A DNA stretch of 64,000 nt from Blasia pusilla (lineage: Eukaryota): positions 2,790,001 to 2,854,000 of the forward strand of contig CM114271.1 in the NCBI GenBank assembly GCA_050084515.1, read 5' to 3'. Positions 9,566-38,884 of the stretch are shown here, piece by piece. The notes beneath the pieces are model-generated. The model ran no database searches and had not been told where the DNA came from. It saw nothing but the letters and a program-made list of their open reading frames with translations. How positions within the stretch are numbered: position 1 is the stretch's first letter; every line of letters starts with the position of its first letter. Made by a program: the position numbers and the translations under genes.

Positions 9566-11445
9566 TTAAATTTCATAGACCATTGCTTCCAGCCTTTCCA
9601 TATCTAGCGAAAACAGACCGAGCACGACATCGATGCTTCCATCTTTGGTGTACGATGGAATCAATATGAGAAGGCCCTCAAAAGGCACCGTTGGAGGTCC
9701 AGCGAACAGAGGAGTGCCCCATCCGAAGTCGAGCTTGTACAATGGTAACTTCGCCCAGCTCGTGATAGACAAATTAGGGGACAAAATATTCCGATATTGC
9801 CTTGCAACTGGCACTGGATTCTTTCGTTGAAGTTCCACAAAATCTAGGGCAGAGAGCATGTATTGCTTATCTACTCCTTTGATTGCTTTCTGAACGATAT
9901 CTACCGCATGGGACAGAGGATTACCTATCAAATCTTCTACAGTACACTGTGAGCATGCATGGAAGATAACATTCCCAAAGTAATTCTCTGGCAGTGGAAC
10001 CTTTCTCCTTCCACTGACTGCAACGATAGCTTTGGTCTCAACCTCTCCAGCCAACCCGCGAGCTTTCGTTATGCACCTCCACAAATGTCCAGCCAGACTC
10101 TCGAAGGTGGAGTAAAAACCATTACCCTCAATATTCTTCATTGCCTCATCTTTGATCTTCTGCAACAACTCCGCACTAAAATGAAGCTTTTTGAGGCAGA
10201 GTGGAGGGTGGTGAGAAGACTGCTCTGTCACAGGTTTAGGGGGTGATTTCTTATACTCAATGTGCTCAAAAGTTGGTTGTGGAGGATCTCTGGCCCTGAG
10301 GGCAGATCGATCATGGGTCGGGATCGATGAGAAAGGCAAACCCTTCACCGCCTCAGCCCAGGCATCCATAAAAGCGGAACCAGACGAACCGTCTACCACT
10401 TGATGATGTCGTGCTATGCCCAAAGTCATGCTCCCACACGTGAACTTAGTCACCTGAACAACGAATATAATCCCAACAAATCAACCCCACGTTGCACGGA
10501 ATGCTTGTGAATTGGACAACATAGCTCCCAAAGTTATGCTGGAATTACTATACGAGATCTTTTGTAGCAGGAAAACATGAAATTGAGAGTCCATACATTG
10601 GATCATAAACTCCACTCACACTGGCACTAAAATTCTCTTTAAAAAACAAAGTACAGAGCGTCCGCTGTCAGCCCCAACCCGAAGGACCTGACTGTACTAT
10701 TCCTAAGGTAATCGTCGATCCATATCCAGGCCAACAGACAGGCCATACACATTGAAGTAATATTCTAGCTCAACTAGCAGCAATGGAGATCATATCACCC
10801 ACTAAAGACTAATGTTGTACGTTTCGAGAACTGATAATAGCTCTCAAATGAGTCCGTGCACTAGTATCACGATACACTTGGCTGGATCCCACAGATGGAT
10901 TGCTCGACTTTTTGGAGCGTCACACATTTGCAGAGGTCCAGCGAAAAATCACATCGGTTCCCAATCTTACAGAACTGGAAGCCTCTCGGACATTTCAAAC
11001 AAAAAGGTACAGGGCTGGGAATGAATTTAATGAAGAGGCTGCACATGGCACGCACCTGGATCAACAGAAGCTCCTCCGCTCCACGATTCGGAGGCAACAA
11101 CTTCAAAAGTTCGTCACCGGGCGGGAATGGCATGAGATCCTCCAACGCAACATTGGCCTCTGCATCGATCCACGCTGCTCCTTGACCATTCAAAGCGATG
11201 ACAGGCCACCCATTGACATCCTTGCTCAGCCTCCCTGCGAATTCCTGGTACTCCTCCAGCGCTTTCAGCAGTCCACCTTCCAACACTTGCGACGAGGGAA
11301 CCGGCGCCCTAAATGCGTATATGATCTCCACATGCACCGCAGGCACCAACAAATCGCAGTTGGACAGTGCCACCGACCTGACCTCGCTCAAACCATCCGC
11401 CAACCCCACCTTTATCAGCTTCTTCGTCCCTCTCTTCACCTCCAT
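9566..11445 (-). CDS. BAHD acyltransferase, copy 2; exons 11445-11056 and 10453-9566, ~425 aa
   Basis: HHQVVD and canonical DFGWG motifs, YFGN, same GT-AG intron position (LIQ|VTKFTCG). Clear paralogue of copy 1. The ATG at 11445 aligns with the copy 1 start (MEVKRG vs MDVKRG). Confidence 0.94.
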
Positions 11446-24260: not shown

Positions 24261-25099
24261 ATGGAGGGCCAATCTGCTAGCCCTCTAACGCCATTTCCTA
24301 CCGGAGAGTATGAGCAATCTACTTTTAGTGGGGCTCTCGCCTTGTCAGATATAAGCAGGACCATGGGAAGTACAGTAGTCACAACGAGAAAATGGGTAGA
24401 TGTGGGGGTGAAGGCTATCCCAAAATCATTATTGGAAGAGGACGATAGAGGTGCAAATGTGTTCCATTTTTGTATTTGTAAAGTGACCGTGATGCAGTAC
24501 TTATGCATCATGTCATTGGTGTTGGTGAACTTGATATTGCTGAAATGCCTACTCCGGTGACAGACATAGTAGGGTATACAAAGCCAGGAAAAAGAAATTG
24601 GGTTTTGAAAGTTACTAGAAGCTTATGGATGGGCATACGGATATTGCTCAGGTTTTGGTCGGTGATATGTGCAATGGGAAGGAATGATTGGCGGATTATC
24701 CCTAAATCTTGTACAATCACACCCACTGTTGGACAATGTTGAAGAAATTCAAACTATGCCTTGCATATGGATTGTATATTTTGGATATGTTGGTTGGATT
24801 AGGCAGGATTGAAGTGTGTTCTTAAGTGAATGCTTGTTGCGGCAAGAAAATAAGCAAAAATATGATGAATTGATCTAGTACATGGATTGCTCTGGAGTTT
24901 TGGATTTCATGACTGAAGCAATGTAGGATCCTAGTTTTCTGTGTATGGGGAATGCCTCATGTACGAAGGCCAAGCAGGTTTGCAGACTCTGGGATTGGAG
25001 TCTAGCTAGGGCACATACCATAAGAAATTGTTACACCAGGCAGGTTTGTAGAGTGGATGGAAAAAATCTGGAAAGAGCACATAGCCTAAAAAAATGGAA

Positions 25100-26260
25100 A
25101 AACCAAGCAAGTTTGTACATTGTGGGGAAAAATAAACTGTGAAGGCACAATGCATATGTTGTTAAACCCTCGAAGGCTAAATATTCATCGTCACCTAAAC
25201 CCCTGAACTGTAGACATGTTGTACCGCCGATCTGTAGAAATTCATCATCATTGTGGAAAGTAGGAAATGGAAAAGTCTTGAAGGACTCCTTTGCACTATC
25301 TACATGATCTAAAGATTCAATCCAGGTCTGCCCTAAAGGGAATGTGTCATGTACCTCATAAATCTACAACTTTAGGTTTGGGGTTGTTGGAAATGGAACA
25401 GTCTAGAAGGAACCCTCTAGAATGTCTCCATGATGTGAGGATTAATTCCCTAATGTGATTCTGTACCCCATAACTTTGAAAATTGTGTAGTCCCCGATCT
25501 ATATGAATTCATCATCATTTACATCTTCCATTTGGGATTGTTGAAAATTCTTGCCCACGTGTTGTGAATCCGGGAAGGGCACTTGGCCAAAAAAAGAGGA
25601 AAAACCAAGCAGGTTTGTAGAATGTGGGGGAAAAATGTGTGTAGGAAACAATGCATATGTTGTTAAACCCCCGAAGGCTAAATATTCATCATCACCTAAA
25701 CCCGTGAACTGTAGACATGTTGTACCCCCCCATGTGTAGAAATTCATCACCATTGTGGAAAGTGGGAAATGAAAAATTCTTGAAGGACTCCTCTGGACTG
25801 TATACATGATCTGAAGATTCAATCCAGACCTGCCCTAAAGGGAATGTGTCGTGTACCCCATAACTCTAGAACTATAGGTTTGGGGTTGTGGGAAGTGGAA
25901 CAGTCCAGATGGAATCCTCTGGATTGTCTCCATGATGTGAGGATAAAATGCCTAATGTGATTCTGTACCCCATAATGTGATTATGTATCCCAGAACTTTG
26001 AAAATTGTATAGCCCCCGATCTCTACCAATTCATCATCATTTGCGGGAAGCGATTTGGGATTGTTGTAAATTCCTGCCCAAGTACTATGAATCCATTGAC
26101 AGGCTACTGAGAATGTTGGAGTGGATAAAGCTTTAGGGTTGTGGGAAATAGAACAGTCTTGAAGGATTACTCTGGACTGTCTCCAAGATGCGAGGATTGA
26201 ATCCACATTTGCCCTAAGGGGAATGTATCATGTACCCCAGAACTCAGAAGTTGTCTAGCC
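25100..26260. repeat. ~500-bp tandem duplication plus a partial third copy
   Basis: aatgcatatgttgttaaaccc..gaaggctaaatattcatc at 25149 and 25650, colinear for ~400 bp. Partial copy at ~26130-26270. Confidence 0.85.
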
Positions 26261-26628
26261 CCCGATCTCTAGAAATTGATCATGTTGTTCTGGGATGCAA
26301 TTTCAAATATCAGAGTGTTATAGAAGATATCGTGCGTGTACACATCGCTACACAATATACATCGCTATCACCAAACACACACAATCCCATGCTAACTCAT
26401 GGCATCCATACATAGAGGCAAGAAGTACCAAAATATCTCCAATTGCCCCCTAGCTGGTGGTTAGGTCCCTCTAACTCTAGATAGCCATCTATCCCTACCT
26501 ATCACGACATACATCTCTAGGACGCTAAGAGCAGAAAGACCGGGTGCTCATGTGGCCCCATCGTTAGTCGTCTTCCTATCATCCATGTGACAAAAAAACT
26601 CGGAATCGAAACCTACCCAGTATCTCCT

Positions 26629-26770
26629 CTATGTACATTGGGGACACATCCATCATCCTCGAGGAACCCTAGTGAGAGGCGGCGTCAGACATGCCATATG
26701 CCACCCTCTCGAACATCCATCATAGACTAGCATCATGGCCGCACCACGGGCAAAACCACACAACATACAA
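26629..26770 (-). pseudogene. PHD finger at the integrase C-terminus
   Basis: CMLC...LVYDGCSRGWHMACLTPPLTRVPRG*WMCPQC fits C4-H-C3, with the third Cys changed to Tyr and one internal stop. Confidence 0.88.
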
Positions 26771-27870
26771 CGCAAGCCTGCAGGAACTACTGCTAAGCTC
26801 GGATCTATTATACCATCAATGTTAGGAAGGTGACATGGCGCACAATTACGCACATGGTCCTTCCAAACCATACCATCGCGTCCCTCCAATAAGAGAACAC
26901 CAGATGGCAAAACTTCACGCACTCTCAAGATGGTGCGCCCTGCAGTCACATCCAACGTCGTGGATGACGTCTGCCGCAAGTAGACATAGTCTCCCTGATG
27001 AAACCTCCAGATAGTAGGTCGATAACCACCTCCCCGAATAGTCGCATACCTCAACGTATCCTGATGTTGCCCAATCGCCAAGTTCTCAAACGCCATGGGC
27101 ATCACTCTCCAAAACAACTCAGCCCTCTGAGAACATGCTCGCATCCATACATCCGGGTCATCAAGGTCTAGCATCTCGACCAATGGCCGCAGGTAAATCT
27201 AGCTCTCGGCCATAAAGTAGCAAGTACGATGAAAAAGACGCTAAGGATGCCTGCCTGCTGAATCTGTATCCCATCGCCAACCACGGAAACTAGAGGTCCC
27301 AATCTCCTAGGTGACCTCTCTGCAAGCCATACTTGCGTAAACCCCTCTTCACCGTTTGCACAACTCTCTCCGCTAACTCATCCGCCTCGGGATAATCTCG
27401 CAAAGTCGTGCGGTGGTCGATCATCGCCTGATCACACAAGGCCTGGAACTCACCGCGAAACTTGGTACCCTGGTCTATCAACACCTCAGCCGGTGCGCCA
27501 TAATGACTCAACACTCTGTCAAAAAAGGCATAAGTTACTCCCTCACTCGCTTTGTCAGGCAATGCAACCAACTCGATCCACTTCGAGAAGTGCTCGACCA
27601 TCACCAACACATAACGACTGTGACGCTCCATCAAAGGCAAAGGTCCTGCAAAATCCAAACTCCATCTATACCCTAAGCCCATGATCAGTAATGGATGCAA
27701 CTGTGAAGTCGGAGAATTAAACAATGCTCGGACCCGATCACACACCATGCACTTGGCAACAAACTGATGAACGTCAATCTGCATGCCTCGCCAACAATAC
27801 TGAATCTGGAGCAAGCTGTACATCCGCTTCATCCCAAAGTGACCCAACTCCTCGTGGGCATGCTGCACTA
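26771..27870 (-). pseudogene. Gypsy integrase
   Basis: HHCC finger HEELGHFG...CMVC. DDE core WSLDFAGP / VLIDQG / AERVVQT. C-terminal GDYVYL...VREV. Confidence 0.92.
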
Positions 27871-28259
27871 GTCATGCTCTCTCCAAAGGATGCGGCACTA
27901 CGCGTACTCTGCCATCCAACCAAACCCTCAAAACATGTATCCTCTCCCAACGGAACCGTCTGGCCCGTTGTAGGATCCGATCCCACTCTCAAGCACCCAC
28001 GGTGCTCGAAACGCTGCCAATACAAAGGTACTCCAAGACTACTCCATCATCATGAATATCTCGGCCACTTGTCGTCTCCTCACTGGCCTCGGGATCCAAG
28101 GACTCTCCACTAGACCTCGCCATCAAAAGTCTCCACACTCTGGCTCTCCATAGCCAACATGCCTAAATAGGCTGACGAGTGCCATCCAGGCACTAACTCC
28201 TCATCACTCTCTCCATACCATCGAGCTCCAGTCGCATCTCGCTGACTCAACCCATCTGC

Positions 28260-29600
28260 ATCCTGGACATGGGTTACGACTCAACCCATATGCATCCAGG
28301 TTGAGCATCCCAGGTCTATGTACCACCTGAAAATCATACTCCTGCAACAACAGAGCCCATCTTGCAAGCTTCCCTATAAGCTTGTCGGACTCCATCAACC
28401 ACTTCAATGGTTGATCATCAGTGATGATGGTAAAGGGGTTGCCGAATAAGTAACAGCTGAAATGCGCGACAGCCCACACTACATCCAAGCACTCACCCTC
28501 ATACGAGCTGTACTTCGCCTTTGCAGTGTTCTTCAAGCGGCTAGCGTAAGCCACCACAAACTCTCTACCCTCATCATCATGCTGGGTGAGCACCGCTCCA
28601 AGCCCCAACATGCTCCAATCTGTGTGCAACTGGAAAGGACGCCCCCTGATCGGTCTCCTCAAGATAGGCGTGGACGTCAACCTATCCTTGAGCAATTGAA
28701 ATGCTCGCTCATGCTCATCCCCCCAATGCAACTCGTGATCCACCTTGGTCAGCAAGGTTAGCGGCTTCACAATCGAACTGAATCCCTTGACGTACCGCCG
28801 ATTGAAGTTCGCCAATCCCATGAATGCGCAAACACGGCTCACATGTGTAGGGCGTGGAATGCGTGAGATAGCCTCTACCTTCGTCTGCTGAATACCAAGG
28901 CCCCCTGGGTATATCGTATGACCCAAGTACTCAATCTCGTCGTAGAAGAACTTTCACTTGCTTGGATGTAGCTTCAGCCCATGTAATTGAAATCCTCAAA
29001 ACACCTCCTCTAGATGTCTCTCATGCTCCTCAACCGACTATGATGTCATCAATATAACACCTAGCAAAATCCAGACCACCAAGATCCTATCCATGACCCT
29101 ATGAAACTCAGTTGGGGCGTTCTTTAACCCAAATGGTAAGAACCGCCACTGGTACAAACAATCCTTCCCGTGAGGATCGATGCCCCAAAATGCCGTCTTC
29201 TACCTGTCCTCCAATCTCATAGGCAGTTGATGGTATCCGGCTTGCAAATCCAATGAACTGAAGATCTTTGCGTGACCAATCGCATCAAAGATCTCCTCAG
29301 GGGTGGGCATGGCACACCTATCGAACTTCGTCTGCCGATTGATAGGTCGATAATTCCCACACATCCGCCTATCCATCCAGTTACCATGCACATCCTTCTT
29401 GGCGGGCATGATAGTGGCAGATGCAAACTCCCCATGCGGCATCTCCACTAGACCTGCTCCGACCAAGTCCTAGCTCCTACTCTGAATTAGAGCCCTCTCC
29501 ATATCATTGTACTTATAGGGTCGTCGGAAGATCGGCGTATCACTCGACAACTCAATGCGGATCCCCGGTCCCTTCAGCGTACCCAAATCCTCCATGCTAA
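28260..29600 (-). pseudogene. Gypsy reverse transcriptase and RNase H
   Basis: FRRPY, RMCGNYRPIN, FSSLDLQAGYHQ, KTAF, LPFGLKNAP, YIDDII. RNase H: LHTDWS, VAYASR, YSSYEGEC, ITDDQPL, ARWALLLQEYDF. Confidence 0.95.
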
Positions 29601-30039
29601 ACGCAAAGCAGCTCCTATAACTCCTAAGGAACTGATGTATCTGGCGTCGCTATCCTCCTGTTAACTTAGGGCCCATATCTGGCTCCCAAGTCTCCATCGT
29701 GACTACGGTAGGACTCTTTGGCGTGGTATCGGTGGTTGCTATGGTGCAACCCCGTCTCGAACAACAACACTCGGCTGCTCTCCTATAGCCAACTGAAAAA
29801 TCTGATCTCCTCCACATGCAGTGCACAGAACCACGCTGGATGTTGTGGCTATCATCTCCTGGCGTACCTGCAAAACATCCCAAGAAGTCCAAGGGTGTCT
29901 CTCCTGATCTCCCATGGTGTGTAGATCTCCTCGGGTCTCGCCCCCAGCCACTGCCTCCACCGTCTTGGTAGGCATGGGGCTCACCAACGCAACCACTATT
30001 ATCTATCGCGATCTCATACGACCCTGCTCAGCCACTCCC

Positions 30040-30990
30040 AAGCTGAGGATCCATGTCAAGCAATTCAGGTCCATCGCCTGACCCAAGACATGGCGTCGTG
30101 ATGCCTCTTACATTGACAGTACTGCCGTCACTCCTGTGGGAAATCCCATCGCTCGCTCTCTCTCGTCGGCGTTGGGCCCCACCAACCGTTGAACCAGGTC
30201 ATCCCAAACCAAGCCAGGACTGGCCTCCTTGTATGCATAGGAAGCGGGAAAACTCACAAACATCGGCAAGACTGCCCGCGGCCTGCCTACCCTATTGACC
30301 ACAGCCAACGGTGGTCGATCATCGTGCCTCACTACGTGTGATCGATGACCTGGATCCATAATGGAATCCACTAACAAATGGGAGGGGCGCTCCACTCTCG
30401 CATACGCCCTCCGTAACACCGCATGGGGCACCAAGTTGGTCCACCAAAGACGCGGGCGATGGGCTCTAGAACTTACACTCTCCGAATCCAAGAACACTGT
30501 TGGGCCAATCTAGGCACGCACCTGATGAACAGTCATCACCACCCGTGATCTAGAGTCTCCTAAGATCGGCACATTCTCCAAAATGTAGGCTGGAGAATGA
30601 GACTGGTGCTCCTGCAAGTGCCGTAAGACCCTCAACATCTCCCAAAACAATCTAGACCAAGTGTCAGCCAACCCGCTACCTCGTCCAACACTCGATTGGC
30701 CCTGATATGGCCAACCGGCAATGACCAAATCAATAATCCCTACCCACTCTAAATCCTGCGCCCCCAACAACGAAATATCCCTTGGTAGGGAACTCTCGTA
30801 CCCATGTACCGCGGACGCACACAATAAGTTGGGAAAACGTAGGCGTAATTATGCCACATGTCGTAGTGAGACGTGTCTGCAACATCATCACTCTCCACAT
30901 ACATGTATTGCTGTACTCCCACTCGTGCCTGCAAAACAGCAACTAACCCGGTGCTAATCCCTCCAAAGAGATCTAACACTCGAACACCCT
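30040..30990 (-). pseudogene. C5 cytosine DNA methyltransferase domain embedded in the Gypsy polyprotein
   Basis: Motif I VRVLDLFGG; II YVESD; III DI; IV DLVIAGWPYQGQS (PCQ>PYQ); V SRLFWE; VI YILENV; VIII AHRPRLWWTNL; IX ERERAMGFP; X RRHVLGQAM. All in canonical order. Confidence 0.9.
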
Positions 30991-31378
30991 CCTCCAAGGT
31001 ACACCACACAATGGGTGTGGTATCCAAGGGTGTCATTGTAGCACTCATTGCCACCTCGGGTTCCTCAGACCCATCACGCTCCGGTTCAAACGCCTCGCTC
31101 TACGCGGTCTGCACGTGCTCATCTGCCAATCGTCGAAGCTCCTCAGTCAAGCCCCACAGCGGCACCTCTCCTCCACATAATGATGTGGCTACCATAACAC
31201 TCCTCTCCATAGAAATGTCAGGAACGGGAGTATCCTCCGTATGGACATGTCCCTCAATCAAATCACTAGGCCAAGTGATGGCACTGCTAAATGCTGCTAA
31301 GGTCGCCATCTCTCCTGGCCGTTGCTCGATCACTACACCTATGAATCAAACGGGTAATGAGCTAAGGCGCCCATCACC

Positions 31379-31720
31379 TCACTGCCATCTTGGTCTGTAG
31401 GACGCTGACTCCTCCCAGTAATCCAGGGCAAACCTCATCGGGTATAACACTGCTCCACCAACCAAGACGTCGTAGGACTTTGCATCAATCACTATCGCCT
31501 TGGCTCGCACCACGGACTCATCTGTAGGATGTCCCGGGAAAATCCTCACCGCGACCTCATGTCGAGTGATATACTGTGTGGTACTCACTCCACCCAGGGA
31601 TGTCTGTATCCGGAATGGACAACGCTCCACATCGGCTCTCGTCAAGCCCAATCCTCTGAATGACGCTTTCCCCAACATCAAGGGTTGTGCTCTTGAATCC
31701 AACAAGACGCGCTGCAGACT
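31379..31720 (-). pseudogene. Retropepsin-like aspartic protease
   Basis: RVLLDSRAQPLMLG (DSGA variant), flap-like IQTSLGG and YDVLVG. Located between gag and pol. Confidence 0.7.
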
Positions 31721-32616
31721 AAAAGCTCTACCTCCAGGACTCACCAACTGGTAGACCTCTCCTCGGTTATCCAGCAACACAACACCAGGAGAAGCCATGG
31801 CACGCTCTATCGTGGGTCTAGCAAGCATCTTCGCCATCCTAGCAGCTGCAGTCTGCCATGAATCTGACGTGGACGGCCCGAGCATGTGCTCCAAAGGCAG
31901 GTCCATCACCTCCTCTGCAATCACCTCTGAACGTGATGGAAGAACTTCAACTCCATGCTCACATAGCGTAGCCGCCAGCCGTAAAGCCTCCGCGGGCGTA
32001 CCCCCCAACGTCATAACATCGGAAGCAGAAAATAAAGGAGCGCGGTACACAATGGTGGCCGCCCCCAACAACGTGCTCAACACATGCCCCTCATGAGCAT
32101 CAACAATAGGAGTCTTCGCACTCGCTTCTCCCATTTCCCTCCGTGCTTGCACACCAACAACATCACCAACTCTCCAGGAACTCTGATCAGGACCCATCGA
32201 TGGGGTCCTCATCGCCTTGGACAACGTGCAAGACTGAGGAAGCCTAGTCTGTTTCCTGGCTTCCTCTCGCTGTGGATCCAACTCTGCAGCTGCTCCACAT
32301 GTCACAATTGCGGCTGCCTCCATCTAGACAACCCCGCACATCCAACCAGGATCCTCCATATCTCTGGATGCTCCATATGATGTCGATGCCACGGATCCGA
32401 CATCGGGTAATCTCAATGCCATAGCGGCAATATGCTCATGTAGCTGATGTATCTGAGCAGCCATCCTAGCCTCATGCCCGGCCTCTCCCTCGACGCGTCT
32501 AGGTGATGGGACTCTATCTCCTCCACGGGAAGCTCCACCACCCTGTCGGGCAACTCCAGCTCCTCATCCCCCAACGGAACCACATGGTGTACGATCTCTA
32601 GGCCCACTCGGACCGG

Positions 32617-33740
32617 CTACTTGCTCTGGTGCCCTCTCTGGCCCTCGGTCCGGACGTAACTCAGGATGTAAAATGAAACACCTCGCGTGTATGTATGACC
32701 ATACCTATGACAATAGTCACATTGATAACCTCCTTGTGCAGCACCATCTCCTCCTCCATGCTGAGGCACACGTCCATGACCCTGACGAGTCCAATCGCGC
32801 TGATGATGGGCTCCACCACATGACCAACAAGTAATAGTAGGCGGTTGTTGTTGAGTCGCATATGAAGGCGCAGGTCTCTGTGGCACGGCCTCCCGGTATC
32901 CTCCCTGAGCTCTTGGTGCCACAGTCGACCTATCTCGGAGTCCACATTGTTGCACAGGTAGTAGGCAATCGTGACTACTCTCGCCCAGAACCAATGGTGA
33001 CTACGCTCTCCTCCGCCATGTTGTGCTCAATGTTCTTGGCAGTCCTAAAAACATCTCTCAACGTAGGGGAGGTGTTCATAAGAAGCACCCCCTCCCGCAC
33101 CCGTTTTTGCGGGGTCCGGTCCACCATCGCATACCATGACTGGATAGCCTGAGCCTTTGTCACCCCTTGAGTGACGTTGATCAACCGGCGCAAGCGAGTG
33201 TAAGCCTCACGCAAACTCTCACCCCGACGCCTCTGGAAGTCATGGATGCTCCGCATCTTCTCCATCCGTACCCCTTGGTAGCTCACCCTCAACTCAGCAA
33301 AGAAATCAACCATCGGGTTGAACTTGGGACGAACCCGACTAGACGGTGCAACTGCTCCAGGGCGAGTGACCCCTCCTAAAACATCACTAGTGGAAGAGGA
33401 AGTAGCCTCTCTTGACTTCTCTTCCTCATCTAGGAACGGCTCCGTCATTGACACATAGTGTGGGTCATAGTAGAGTCACCATGCCTCAATCTCCTAGGCA
33501 TATCTGTGGGAGAACTCATGGTTATCGTCCATGGGCACCCCCCCTAAATGTTGGAACATACCATTCCATGTTGTAAACGGGTTGAACTCTCTAGAGTTCC
33601 TGGCCCGCTGGGAGTCACACCAACTCCTAAACTCCGCAATGAAGTCATGTAGCTGTATGGTGCCTACAGCACCCAAAAACCTACGCGGTCCTCTACCCCG
33701 GTCGTCCATCTCGTACGCCAAACTCGTAGGATCACTCAAT
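32617..33740 (-). pseudogene. Gypsy gag with zinc knuckles
   Basis: FQRRRGESLREAYTRL (major-homology-region-like), CWSCGGAHHQRDW and CDYCHRYGH knuckles. Confidence 0.75.
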
Positions 33741-35538
33741 GTGTACGGTGGATCACTAACAAACTCCTCTACATGCTCCCCCTCGTCTGAAGTGACAAAG
33801 AAGGAGATCGAGGTGGTCTCTCACGTGGAGACCCTCGAAACCTCGCACCACTCCGGGTAACCCTTCTAGAGCTACTCTCAGGTTCACTACCTCGCCTCTC
33901 AAAATCTTGAAAGGACGCCGTGATGGCCCTCATGCCCCTCTCACACGATCACTCTCAACCTCGTGAGTAATCCCTCAATCACTCATCCCAAACATGTGCC
34001 ACTCGATCTACACTCTCCCTCCCCAAGACATGTAACGTGCGGCAATAAGCGGCGTGGTGCGGCAAATCGACCAAGCTATCATCTCATCGACAACCTACCC
34101 TCAACTCCAAACATCCCACACAGGTCTATGTCCCCTAAACCACATACATAAATGATGCTCTCAGCAACCACACAACCCAATATCCCCAAATAAACTACCA
34201 AAATCCCAGAATCCCTCACGCGTACAAGGTAAAGGACCAGAATGGGTAACCTGAACACATGTCGATGTTGCTCCTCAGCAACTGCAAATCTCGACCCCAA
34301 CTCGGTCATGGAGATAACTCCTCCAATCAGCAAGTCATACTCGTCCCGTACTGACGTTGCTCAAAACTCCTCGATGGACAGTGCGGTTCCAACAGAATGG
34401 TGCGGCGTTGCAGGCGGTACAAAACGGCTACGAACGACACGGCCCTCGATGGTGGGATGCAGCACTCGGCAGCATACCCTCCTCAATCAACAATAAACCC
34501 ACACTCTGCTCCAAAATGACGGTGCAGCTCCACGATTGAGAAGGTGCGGTGCGGCCACAAGTGGCACGGCGCGTTGTGGCTACGGGCGTCACGGCACGGT
34601 TCTCGATTGTTGTCGAGCAGCTACCAATCACAATATAGCAGCATGAAATCAAAACTCAAACACCATAATCGGAGGTCATCTACCATCACTGGTTGATGAT
34701 AAAACTGCGATGATGGTGGCGGCCAAACCAAAGTACGTGGTGGCGGCGCAAGTCAGAGAATCAACGGTGGTCGTGGAAGACCCTCCACTTCGTAATGGCA
34801 GCAATGGCAACCAAAGGGTGGACAACGGCCGAATGCAGCTCTGAGCAATGTTGGGCAACGGCAACGGCCGACGGTGGTCGGTGGCCGGTAGACGGTGGAC
34901 CGTTGACCGCGAAGATTGACCGTTGATGGTGACGACGGACCGTTGACGGTGACAGTGACAGTGCTCCGTGGATTACGACTCCCGTATCATGTGTCGGCTT
35001 CAGATTGACCCTTTTTGAGAGCCCCTTCAATAGTAGGGAAGGACCCACTGGCAAGAAATGTTGAAGAAATGGTGAAGGGGGGGAGGGGGGGGCGGAGTAC
35101 ACGACGTGTACTGTCTAGGGATAGGAAACACAGCCTTGGAATTTATTGCTAAACACGTACGCAATCAATTGCATCTAAACCCGAGATATCCACTAAAACC
35201 CGCGATTGGGGCCGGATTCAAGAAATGTCCTATGAACTGGATTTTGGGCATATTACCGCTAATGTTATCGGCCAGGCGTGAGGCTATGACGGGATTAACA
35301 TCATTACCACATCCTTTCCCATCACCATGACGATGATCATCACCATCATGCATCATCCATGAATCAGTGTCTATGGGTATGGTATCCGCATATCGATGCC
35401 CATATATGCCATCGACAGCCATGGCGATGCCACCCACACTTGACAATGCCGACATCACAACGCGCGCAGCTTAGGGTCTTGGTGCGAGAAAGTGCGCAAA
35501 TTGATCAGATTGATGCCTTTAGGGTGATGCTGGTTCTT

Positions 35539-36270
35539 GTTTGACGAAGGAATGACAGTCGTCCATGCGATAGAGACCACGAAACAAACGGAGAAAAAAA
35601 GAAGGTTCTTAACATTGAGCCTACAAATTTCTCCTCATGGTTGAGTAATCATCTTGATTGGCAGCAGAATGTTCAATTCTATTTCACTCATGCGTCCATA
35701 CACTTGTTTGGCACAGAGGTTGGGCGGATATTAGGGTAACTTTGCAGACGGAGAAACATTGGAGACGGCCAGGGCTACGTTGGTAAGATAGTCGTTCCTG
35801 TGTGTACGCCTTGCATTTCTAATATTTTCCTTGCATCGGGATTTTGTAGTGATCGAATTGAGCAACGTTCAAGTGCGCGAATTCATGGAATTGATAGAAT
35901 TTTGAATCTCATTGAGGCACGAGGCGTTGGATGCTGTTTGTTGTTTGACGGAGGAATGCCATGGAATGTTGTAGTAGAGACCACGAAACAAACGAAAGAA
36001 AGAAGGTGGAGCACATCAACATCATCCCCCCAAAATTTCCGCTTCATGCGTGAGGAATCGCCACAGGAATCATCCTCAATGTTTGCAGAAAGTGCAATTT
36101 TATTTCATTCCTACATCCATACACCACGGAGGTTGGGTGGATATTAGGGTAACTTTGGACACGGAGGAACATTGGAGACAACCAAGGCAAAATTGGTAAG
36201 TGAGTCGTTCATGTGTGTACGCCATGCCTGTATGAGTTTTTCCCTGTACCGGGTTCTTCCTTGCATCGTG
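35539..36270. repeat. Two-copy direct repeat, period ~400 bp
   Basis: gtttgacg.aggaatg...tagagaccacgaaacaaacg...ggatattagggtaacttt...tgtgtgtacgcc starts at ~35540 and ~35943. Confidence 0.8.
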
Positions 36271-36950
36271 TTTTCATAGTTAAAGCGTTATGGTCATCCG
36301 ATTGGCGCTAAGGGACCAGAAACACATATAAGAAATTTGGCACTCCAATATTGAACCTAAGCTTTTTCTACGCTACTTTCATGTCCTGTGATAGCCTCCA
36401 TATAACCCTCGTCATCAAATTTAAGTTATAAACGCAAGGAGAAGGGAACCATGGTAAGTTCCCCAAGGGAGCAAGCATCCAAGACTTTATGTACCCCTTG
36501 CAACCCTCTTTCAATCATTCTCGTCTTCTGCTTGTTTCCATTTTTTTGTTTTTGAAACCTAGACATTCTTTAGATTAGCGCCATAAATGCCAGGCTAGGT
36601 TTGGTTATAGCATTTGATAAGTAGGTTGGAGGCAACCAATTTTTACGTATAGGCCCATCTTATTGCGCACCAATTTCTAGTGAATGTCCGTAGCCTACAT
36701 GCCACACAGTTTCTGTATGGAGGAAGAACAGTGGTAGAGGAACATAAGGGTTTAGGGTGAAGGATCTGGAAATTGAATCTTACATGGACATGTGGAGTTG
36801 TAAATTACCGCTTACAACCTTCCAAATTGCAGGGAATGTCAGGGAAGTCTAGAGAAATCATGTTGGGCTATTCCATTTCCTACTTCCCAACCGTTTTTCA
36901 GTAGCTCGTAGTAACGTTTAGTAGCTCCCTAAATATTGTTCAATCATCTT

Positions 36951-38884
<1,934 letters not shown>

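Follow-up and report, generated by a model that had tools for sequence, protein, structure and literature searches.

Does a land plant host a family of Ty3/Gypsy retrotransposons that encode their own DNA methyltransferase (DNMT), or did a methyltransferase sequence land in one single element? The question is posed by a stretch of 64,000 nt from Blasia pusilla (GenBank assembly GCA_050084515.1, contig CM114271.1, positions 2,790,001 to 2,854,000), hereafter called the window, in which an element occupies the minus strand from ~34,900 to 26,318. An earlier reading of the letters alone (the sequence-only reading) had proposed that a Gypsy element carries there a C5 cytosine methyltransferase between its protease (PR) and its reverse transcriptase (RT). 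On the grounds of identity, family membership, layout and selection, the window very probably contains one dead, 3′-shortened copy of a Ty3/Gypsy-type family that has a DNMT3-like C5 methyltransferase fixed and selected in its coding region.

The element in the window and its methyltransferase domain

The domains follow each other on the minus strand in the order gag, PR, DNMT, RT, RNase H, integrase and PHD finger, all colinear by Pfam and tblastn; the tblastn match with Marchantia polyprotein models runs colinearly from 33,694 to 26,635. The parts of the element are as follows, where ORF stands for open reading frame.

33,821-34,908, minus strand: 5′ terminal/untranslated region, from family RNA and DNA read depth; the 5′ limit is approximate (34,900-34,960)
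32,600-33,720, minus strand: gag, decayed, including the zinc-knuckle region; tblastn with Marchantia protein P0125 (residue 9 onwards) begins at 33,694; alignment with the gag-PR of relative L025
31,379-32,323, minus strand: aspartic protease region; active-site motif LLDSRAQ at 31,705-31,685, in which the DSG of the family is mutated to DSR
30,021-30,988, minus strand: DNMT3-like C5 cytosine methyltransferase domain, inactivated; from PF00145, motifs, tblastn and relatives
29,739-29,741, minus strand: conserved in-frame TAG followed by CAA CCA, at the boundary of ORF1 and ORF2; candidate site of programmed readthrough, with the same stop and context in sister loci
28,960-29,703, minus strand: reverse transcriptase, decayed, with YIDD at 29,056-29,045; from tblastn, and RVT_1 in relatives
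28,204-28,953, minus strand: RNase H of the Ty3/Gypsy type (PF17917, E 2.6e-32; PF17919, E 3.8e-31)
27,290-28,105, minus strand: integrase, H2C2 zinc domain and DDE core (PF17921, E 3.3e-13; PF00665, E 4.5e-12; tblastn)
26,653-27,198, minus strand: C-terminal extension of the integrase with a terminal PHD finger (Cys/His pattern at 26,769-26,689; PF00628)
26,318-26,452, minus strand: polypurine tract (26,452-26,445) and one B-like terminal repeat, the end of the element; from sequence, local alignment and read depth

All six C5 methyltransferase motifs named by the sequence-only reading were found on the minus strand in canonical order: LDLFGG (30,976-30,959), GWPYQG (30,716-30,699), ENV (30,578-30,570), RPRLWWTN (30,458-30,435), ERAMGFP (30,158-30,138) and LGQAMD (30,086-30,069). 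Their coordinates descend from 30,976 to 30,069 in the unpermuted order I-IV-VI-VIII-IX-X. PF00145 matches 30,510-30,848(-) with an E-value of 2.1e-8 and 34.4 bits, against a curated cut-off of 22 (intact relatives reach 46-51 bits). The claim, which had been staked on a PF00145 match and on sister copies that carry the domain, stood on both counts. The DNMT does lie between protease and RT, being flanked by the DSR motif (31,705-31,685) and YIDD (29,056-29,045), and it is colinear with intronless relatives, which bears out the supposed lack of introns. Motif IV reads PYQ where the family has PCQ: the catalytic Cys codon at 30,707-30,705 is TAT (Tyr), a change that had been spotted correctly from the letters. 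The loss of the catalytic Cys is a fault of the window copy and not of the family, in which Cys140, Q141, E183 and N184 are each conserved in at least 90% of 39 rows.

The DNMT contains in-frame stops at 30,851, 30,512, 30,110 and 30,005 and a single frameshift between 30,878 and 30,815; the stretch from 30,021 to 30,848 is one frame with two in-frame stops, and the portion with motif I lies in a different frame. The domain had been described as decayed to the same degree as its flanks, which agrees with the number of in-frame stops per part: seven in gag-PR, four in the DNMT, six to eight in RT-RNase H and two to three in the integrase, along with several frame changes. Alignment of the window's gag with the gag-PR of L025 locates two of these stops (33,496 and 33,478) and a frame change near 32,990-32,626. 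The window copy is dead: the catalytic Cys is Tyr, DSG is DSR, there are ~20 or more in-frame stops and several frameshifts, and every domain is broken.

The order PR-RT-RNase H-integrase, with an RNase H of the Gypsy type and an H2C2/DDE integrase, identifies the element as Ty3/Gypsy (the RT profile being taken from relatives); no tyrosine recombinase, the mark of DIRS and PAT elements, was found, the element having a DDE integrase instead. Its RT is 61-73% identical by tblastn to Marchantia protein P0127 and to L025, a relative in whose gag zf-CCHC was detected. The PHD finger (PF00628) scores E 4.3e-4 in the window, below the cut-off, and 40.6 bits (cut-off 24) in the intact relative L047; Pfam gave no match on the protease piece of the window. 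No tRNA genes were found in the 64-kb window. The ratio of observed to expected CpG is 0.74 in the element and 0.66 in the rest of the window, not distinctive as a sign of methylation.

Relatives, selection, ends and transcripts of the family

A protein search with the read-through translation of the window's DNMT (P0001, with X at stops) returned 203 relatives of similar length, with a best E-value of 3e-111, as well as 46 longer proteins, a match far beyond chance. Among the 120 listed of the 203 near-length matches and the 46 longer ones, the named relatives are Marchantia polymorpha, M. paleacea, Riccia sorocarpa, Calypogeia fissa and Sphagnum species, with 60-68% identity. They are liverworts and Sphagnum mosses and share the layout of the window's element, in keeping with the earlier proposal that land plants host such a family. 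Two Marchantia proteins (P0125 and P0126; 1,248-1,278 residues) consist of gag, CCHC, PR and DNMT with PCQ intact, while a third (P0127) combines PF00145, RVT_1 and RNase H in one gene model. A scan of metagenome contigs yielded 75 loci, some of whose proteins cluster with those of Sphagnum. The wider group is large, since a profile search of 1.84 billion cluster representatives returned 573 at E ≤1e-30, many of them polyproteins of 1,000-3,400 residues. A protein atlas search returned only generic PF00145 clusters, useless for placement. One family member (P0042) is filed under a cyanobacteria-like metagenome-assembled genome (Candidatus Obscuribacterales) and is near-identical in the tree to metagenome locus L049; it is probably a wrongly binned contig with a plant-type retroelement.

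In a quick maximum likelihood tree of 72 DNMT domains, the window falls inside a fully supported clade of 22 rows, including 10 from Marchantia, two from Calypogeia and three from Sphagnum, with the rows of each host together. Rows with the layout of the window occupy one side of the tree, and 24 of the 25 rows with the order RT-RNase H-DNMT-integrase-PHD form one fully supported clade. Two long-branch rows, P0155 and P0167, are unplaced.

The ratio of non-synonymous to synonymous substitution (dN/dS) in the DNMT is 0.14 for L047/L046 and 0.19-0.21 for L025/L003 and L025/L005; the protease is similar (0.18), and RT, RNase H and integrase (~0.03) are under stronger constraint, all of these values being rough, for most pairs have a saturated dS. 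For the DNMT of two close copies the ratio is 0.77, as expected of decay after insertion, and the window compared with L003 gives proportions of non-synonymous and synonymous differences (pN and pS) of 0.22 and 0.77. The DNMT of the family is under purifying selection: it is a fixed, selected feature of the family and not a one-off capture.

In the intact locus L047, a single stop separates an ORF1 of 1,369 aa (protease and PF00145) from an ORF2 of 1,047 aa (RVT_1, RNase H, integrase and PHD) in the same frame, and L046 and L025 have the same layout, with ORF1 and ORF2 in one frame. Both full-length Marchantia gag-DNMT models end ~100 residues past motif X, as do the metagenome loci. Sister copies had been proposed as a check on whether PCQ is intact and the ORF continuous with RT: PCQ is intact and the ORF is in the frame of RT, but a conserved stop lies between the two domains. 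The notion of a Gypsy element with a DNMT held, while it had missed that the DNMT shares the frame of gag and PR and precedes that stop, that there is no ordinary pair of long terminal repeats (LTRs) and that the integrase ends in a PHD finger.

No repeat pair flanking the window copy was found with a repeat search and two self-BLASTs, and no target duplication was readable. Sister loci L050, L058 and L032 have one repeat A (~340 nt) at the 5′ end and, at the 3′ end, a polypurine tract (PPT) followed by repeat B (~113 nt), A and B; no B was found ahead of their first A, nor the two matching LTRs expected of a Gypsy element. They start with TGTCATG (L050, L058) or TATCATG (L032) and end in ACA, bounded TG...CA, and all three are flanked by 4-bp target duplications (AAGG, CATA and TCTC). 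Locus L005 has the A pair only. The PPT and B of the window align locally with those of L050 and L058 with scores of 114-122 (shuffle maximum, 68); its 5′ region does not align with the Sphagnum-type A repeat above the level of chance (a score of 39, the shuffle maximum being 42). Family read depth (RNA and DNA) falls from thousands in bin 34,542-34,908 to ~14 or less in bin 34,909-35,275 and ceases at the other end near 26,340, and the second A and B of the sister copies are missing from the window copy, a loss that recombination between the two B copies would explain.

At the inner B|A junction of the sister loci (L050:10230-10360; L058:14630-14760; L032:10370-10500), ACA is followed by two bases and TGT (TAT in L058). 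The junction looks like element ends joined head to tail and may provide a template for the restoration of the ends, as has been proposed for DIRS-like elements. Directly past the 3′ end of the window copy lies a 502-nt tandem repeat of ~2.4 units (25065-26303; 83% identity between the first two), which is not part of the element: DNA contigs of the family give no depth there.

RNA reads were counted at ≥85% likeness over 26,100-34,900 in three runs from B. pusilla. The element received 5,527, 5,426 and 5,858 reads, with a sharp drop in depth at both ends and a strand bias of ~10-50 to 1; in bin 30,138-30,504, within the DNMT, the two strands stand at 51.4 vs 3.0, 45.6 vs 1.3 and 76.5 vs 4.2. 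If the libraries follow the usual convention, this is sense RNA. Its source is sister copies, with little or no contribution from the window copy, because only one, three and six reads, respectively, are ≥99% alike to the latter. The family is highly repeated in the species, since 196,035 contigs of a DNA run match it (a depth, not a copy number). Family reads run continuously through the DNMT segment and the rest of the element.

An RNA joint from 28,512 to 29,572, skipping 1,059 bases of RT, occurs in all three runs (14, 24 and 11 reads); it more likely reflects an expressed deletion derivative than an intron, because its ends are not GT..AG on the sense strand. The sister copy L025:321-6809 has open reading frames and yet an observed/expected CpG ratio of 0.28, while other copies have 0.55-0.74.

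The window contains further repeats away from the element. In 1120-2314 and 10217-11353, direct repeats of 244 and 300 nt form two pairs (74-78% identical) with a spacing of ~9.0-9.1 kb, resembling decayed LTRs of a different retrotransposon that is unrelated to the element. A two-unit tandem repeat of ~405 nt (71%) spans 35526-36253, and an inverted repeat pair of ~457 nt (36950-37406 with 38885-38455; 87% identical) encloses a short-period array at 37337-37722 with 8- and 12-nt spacing.

Kind of enzyme, substrate and the conserved stop

Compared with sequences in the PDB, the family profile scores best against DNMT3A (E 3.6e-19; 72 bits), DNMT3B (1.4e-17) and DNMT3C (4.6e-17), followed by tobacco DRM (4onj; 2.3e-9), DRM2 (5e-7), M.HhaI (1.6e-5), DNMT2 (1.8e-4) and DNMT1 (0.2). 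An AlphaFold2 (AF2) model of the DNMT of an intact member (pLDDT 82; pTM 0.86) retrieves DNMT3A/B/C in Foldseek at all ranks listed up to 50 (best E 1.2e-18; target TM 0.80-0.82). By sequence and predicted fold, the family enzyme is closest to DNMT3A/B/C, and its signatures of motifs I, VIII and IX align with DNMT3A; the earlier description of the domain as non-permuted and DNMT3-like was borne out by both comparisons. Plant DRM differs in being permuted. Unlike cellular DNMT3, the element's enzyme is embedded in a Gag-PR polyprotein, has no PWWP or ADD module (Pfam detects neither in L047 ORF1 nor in P0125 of Marchantia, and the PHD finger of the element belongs to its integrase) and carries an extra insert of ~85 residues between motifs VIII and IX, absent from DNMT3A and modelled with a pLDDT of 45-67 over residues ~261-300.

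The DNMT of intact copies would probably be an active de novo DNA C5-methyltransferase. Its main substrate could be DNA that the element has just made, or fresh insertions; such self-marking, proposed for the known algal and dinoflagellate elements, is here a conjecture by analogy to which we give somewhat less than an even chance. The sequence-only reading had suggested self-regulation, camouflage or chromatin manipulation as the purpose of such methylation, each of which would be conjecture as well. The PHD finger of the integrase would steer insertion by reading histone H3 tails.

Doubtful, if conceivable, is an active enzyme that is aimed at the host genome rather than at the element's own new DNA, where it would blunt or redirect silencing or mark the neighbourhoods of insertions. 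As a product of ORF1, it would be abundant and untied to the stoichiometry of RT and integrase, and effects on the host epigenome are raised in the text of de Mendoza et al. 2018 (PMC5890265); the same text, however, describes an ordinary plant-like methylome for K. nitens, a carrier of the known elements, and nothing in our analysis separates host DNA from own DNA. Less likely than not, in our view, is the wider scenario in which a Gypsy lineage with a DNMT3, related to the Klebsormidium elements, would have persisted through the move to land and still be transcribed in liverworts, mosses and B. pusilla, with its methyltransferase made at the level of Gag ahead of a leaky UAG and marking the element's new DNA, or host chromatin via the PHD finger of the integrase.

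The stop between DNMT and RT was compared over 51 sites matching the search pattern (50 loci and the window). In 49 of these, TAG or TAA is followed by CAA or CAG, and in the other two the C of that codon has become T; the window retains TAG CAA CCA, with the stop at 29,741-29,739. Although the linker on either side of the stop changes rapidly (dN/dS 0.47), the stop and the next codon are kept, from which we infer programmed readthrough. The conserved stop is probably leaky, its readthrough being driven by context, which resembles the leaky UAG-CAR-YYA stop of plant viruses. Leaky stops are familiar from tobacco mosaic virus (UAG CAA UUA) and from gag-pol of murine leukaemia virus: there, as here, a product made in abundance lies upstream of an in-frame UAG and the polymerase beyond it, with CAA or CAG as the following codon. 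The family differs in having protease and methyltransferase upstream of the stop, and in the second codon past it, which is YYC in 41 of the 51 sites, the exact CAR-YYA being present in eight (including the window, with CCA). A leaky stop would yield the methyltransferase along with Gag and protease in amounts far above those of RT and integrase, which would come only from the readthrough fraction; the protease would free the methyltransferase from the polyprotein.

Less credible, in our view rather unlikely, is that the stop is a true terminator and that RT, RNase H, integrase and PHD finger are made from a spliced or subgenomic RNA or by reinitiation. Most loci do read CAA CCC and not the classical CAR-YYA, no conserved RNA structure was found 3′ of the stop (consensus energy −0.41 kcal/mol; five weak pairs), and RNA joints exist within the element, such as that from 28,512 to 29,572 in three runs. 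The joints listed, however, do not cross the stop; no conserved start is apparent for ORF2, which follows in frame right after the stop in lineages that are only ~49% identical in protein, and a terminator does not sit easily with a TAG and CAR so well kept within the fast-evolving linker.

That the domain is kept without being a DNA methyltransferase in vivo, as a silent regulator or binder (like DNMT3L for DNMT3A) or as an enzyme for RNA or RNA:DNA hybrids, is improbable. The sole published test, in yeast, of the domain of KnitGypsy-Dnmt3 from Klebsormidium detected no methylation and was called inconclusive in the text of PMC5890265, and the insert, absent from DNMT3A, is partly of low confidence in the model; but the catalytic PCQ, ENV and RxR and the SAM (S-adenosylmethionine)-binding motif I are nearly invariant among non-decayed rows, unlike in DNMT3L, and tRNA enzymes of the DNMT2 type score far below DNMT3 (1.8e-4 vs 3.6e-19). 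As for a host DNMT3 retrocopy or gene fragment that landed in a single Gypsy copy, the decay of the window copy and its want of readable terminal repeats or target duplication would suit it, but we give it practically no credence, given that at least five named bryophyte species, and metagenome loci too, have proteins with this domain in the same position, that DNMT clades match element lineages, that the DNMT is under purifying selection and that family reads are continuous over it and the rest of the element.

Several points weigh against the reading of the window as a copy of a selected, DNMT-bearing Gypsy family with a leaky stop and a self-marking enzyme. Besides the saturated dS, the prevalence of YYC, the lack of RNA structure, the yeast result and the conjectural nature of self-marking, the tree was built without host DNMT3, DRM, CMT or MET1 sequences, the window copy shows no recognisable terminal repeat pair or target duplication and takes its 5′ limit from read depth, and the protease of L047 and L046 matches Asp_protease_2 at E 2e-4 to 2.7e-4, under the Pfam cut-off. 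The argument for readthrough consists of conservation and context, and activity is for every family member a prediction; in the RNA data, the strand convention is assumed, and the reads may stem from few copies or from read-through transcripts.

Implications and comparison with known elements

The organisms so far known to carry transposon-encoded DNA methyltransferases, dinoflagellates and Klebsormidium, do not lend themselves easily to manipulation. Here, the same kind of element occurs in land plants, with full gag-PR-DNMT frames annotated in the genetic model Marchantia polymorpha, so that natural copies could be assayed and mutant methylomes compared. If the wider scenario were true, land plants would have a transposon-borne de novo methylation system open to Marchantia genetics. 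The layout suggests a concrete, testable idea of dosage and timing: the DNMT precedes a conserved stop of the leaky type, repeats of the DIRS kind occur together with a DDE integrase and 4-bp duplications, and the integrase bears a PHD finger. Many bryophyte gene models named “DNA (cytosine-5)-methyltransferase” that belong to the family should not count as host DNMTs.

The family refines the statement, in the accessible text of PMC6338049, that land plants lack transposons encoding DNA methylases. No such elements are reported for bryophytes or other land plants in the literature searched, including the available texts of PMC12344493, PMC11982613, bioRxiv 363937 and PMC6338049, subscription papers and supplements being outside the search. 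In the main text of PMC5890265, DNMT-bearing retrotransposons are described only in Symbiodinium and Klebsormidium nitens, as the sequence-only reading had correctly stated (dinoflagellates and a charophyte alga), with no mention of Marchantia, Sphagnum or liverworts.

The SymbioDIRS-Dnmt3 elements of dinoflagellates, as described in PMC5890265, likewise have a DNMT3-type domain in a retrotransposon polyprotein, the arrangement A-coding-B-A-B and two domain orders in one group, and DIRS enzymes of dinoflagellates achieved de novo CG methylation in the yeast assay of that paper. What sets them apart is integration by a tyrosine recombinase; the integrase of the present family is a DDE enzyme (PF00665), and sister copies are flanked by 4-bp target duplications. 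Environmental polyproteins with the order RT-RNase H-DNMT-integrase-PHD (P0161, P0163 and 62 more) are alike in their Gypsy-type RT, RNase H and integrase with C-terminal PHD finger, and in a DNMT that is 35-39% identical to that of the window and has the same insert between motifs VIII and IX; they differ in that the DNMT stands past RNase H and not before RT, and they form a separate clade. Residues ~1,650-1,990 of P0161 (and the tail of P0163) weakly match a D12-class N6-adenine DNA methyltransferase (E 0.0035; 17.5 bits, below the cut-off); if this were true, such elements would encode two DNA methyltransferases.

The closest known element is KnitGypsy-Dnmt3, compared here by its description in PMC5890265; no Klebsormidium name occurs among the matches listed or the cluster members. 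According to that text, it shares with the present family the Gypsy domain set, an intronless, non-permuted DNMT3-like domain within the coding region, a streptophyte host and purifying selection (Ka/Ks <0.2 in the paper; 0.14-0.21 here). It also shares A-coding-B-A-B instead of two LTRs, an arrangement which the paper calls typical of DIRS elements and common to the Klebsormidium Gypsy-Dnmt3, and of which nothing but the PPT and one B survives in the window copy. The hosts differ, the present family residing in land plants (the named relatives being liverworts and Sphagnum), and so does, by the wording of the paper, the position of the DNMT, which is placed there in the ORF of the Pol polyprotein and here in the gag-PR frame, before the stop and RT. 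The family thus appears to be of a known kind, that of KnitGypsy-Dnmt3, in a new host range, with a layout that differs from the published wording.

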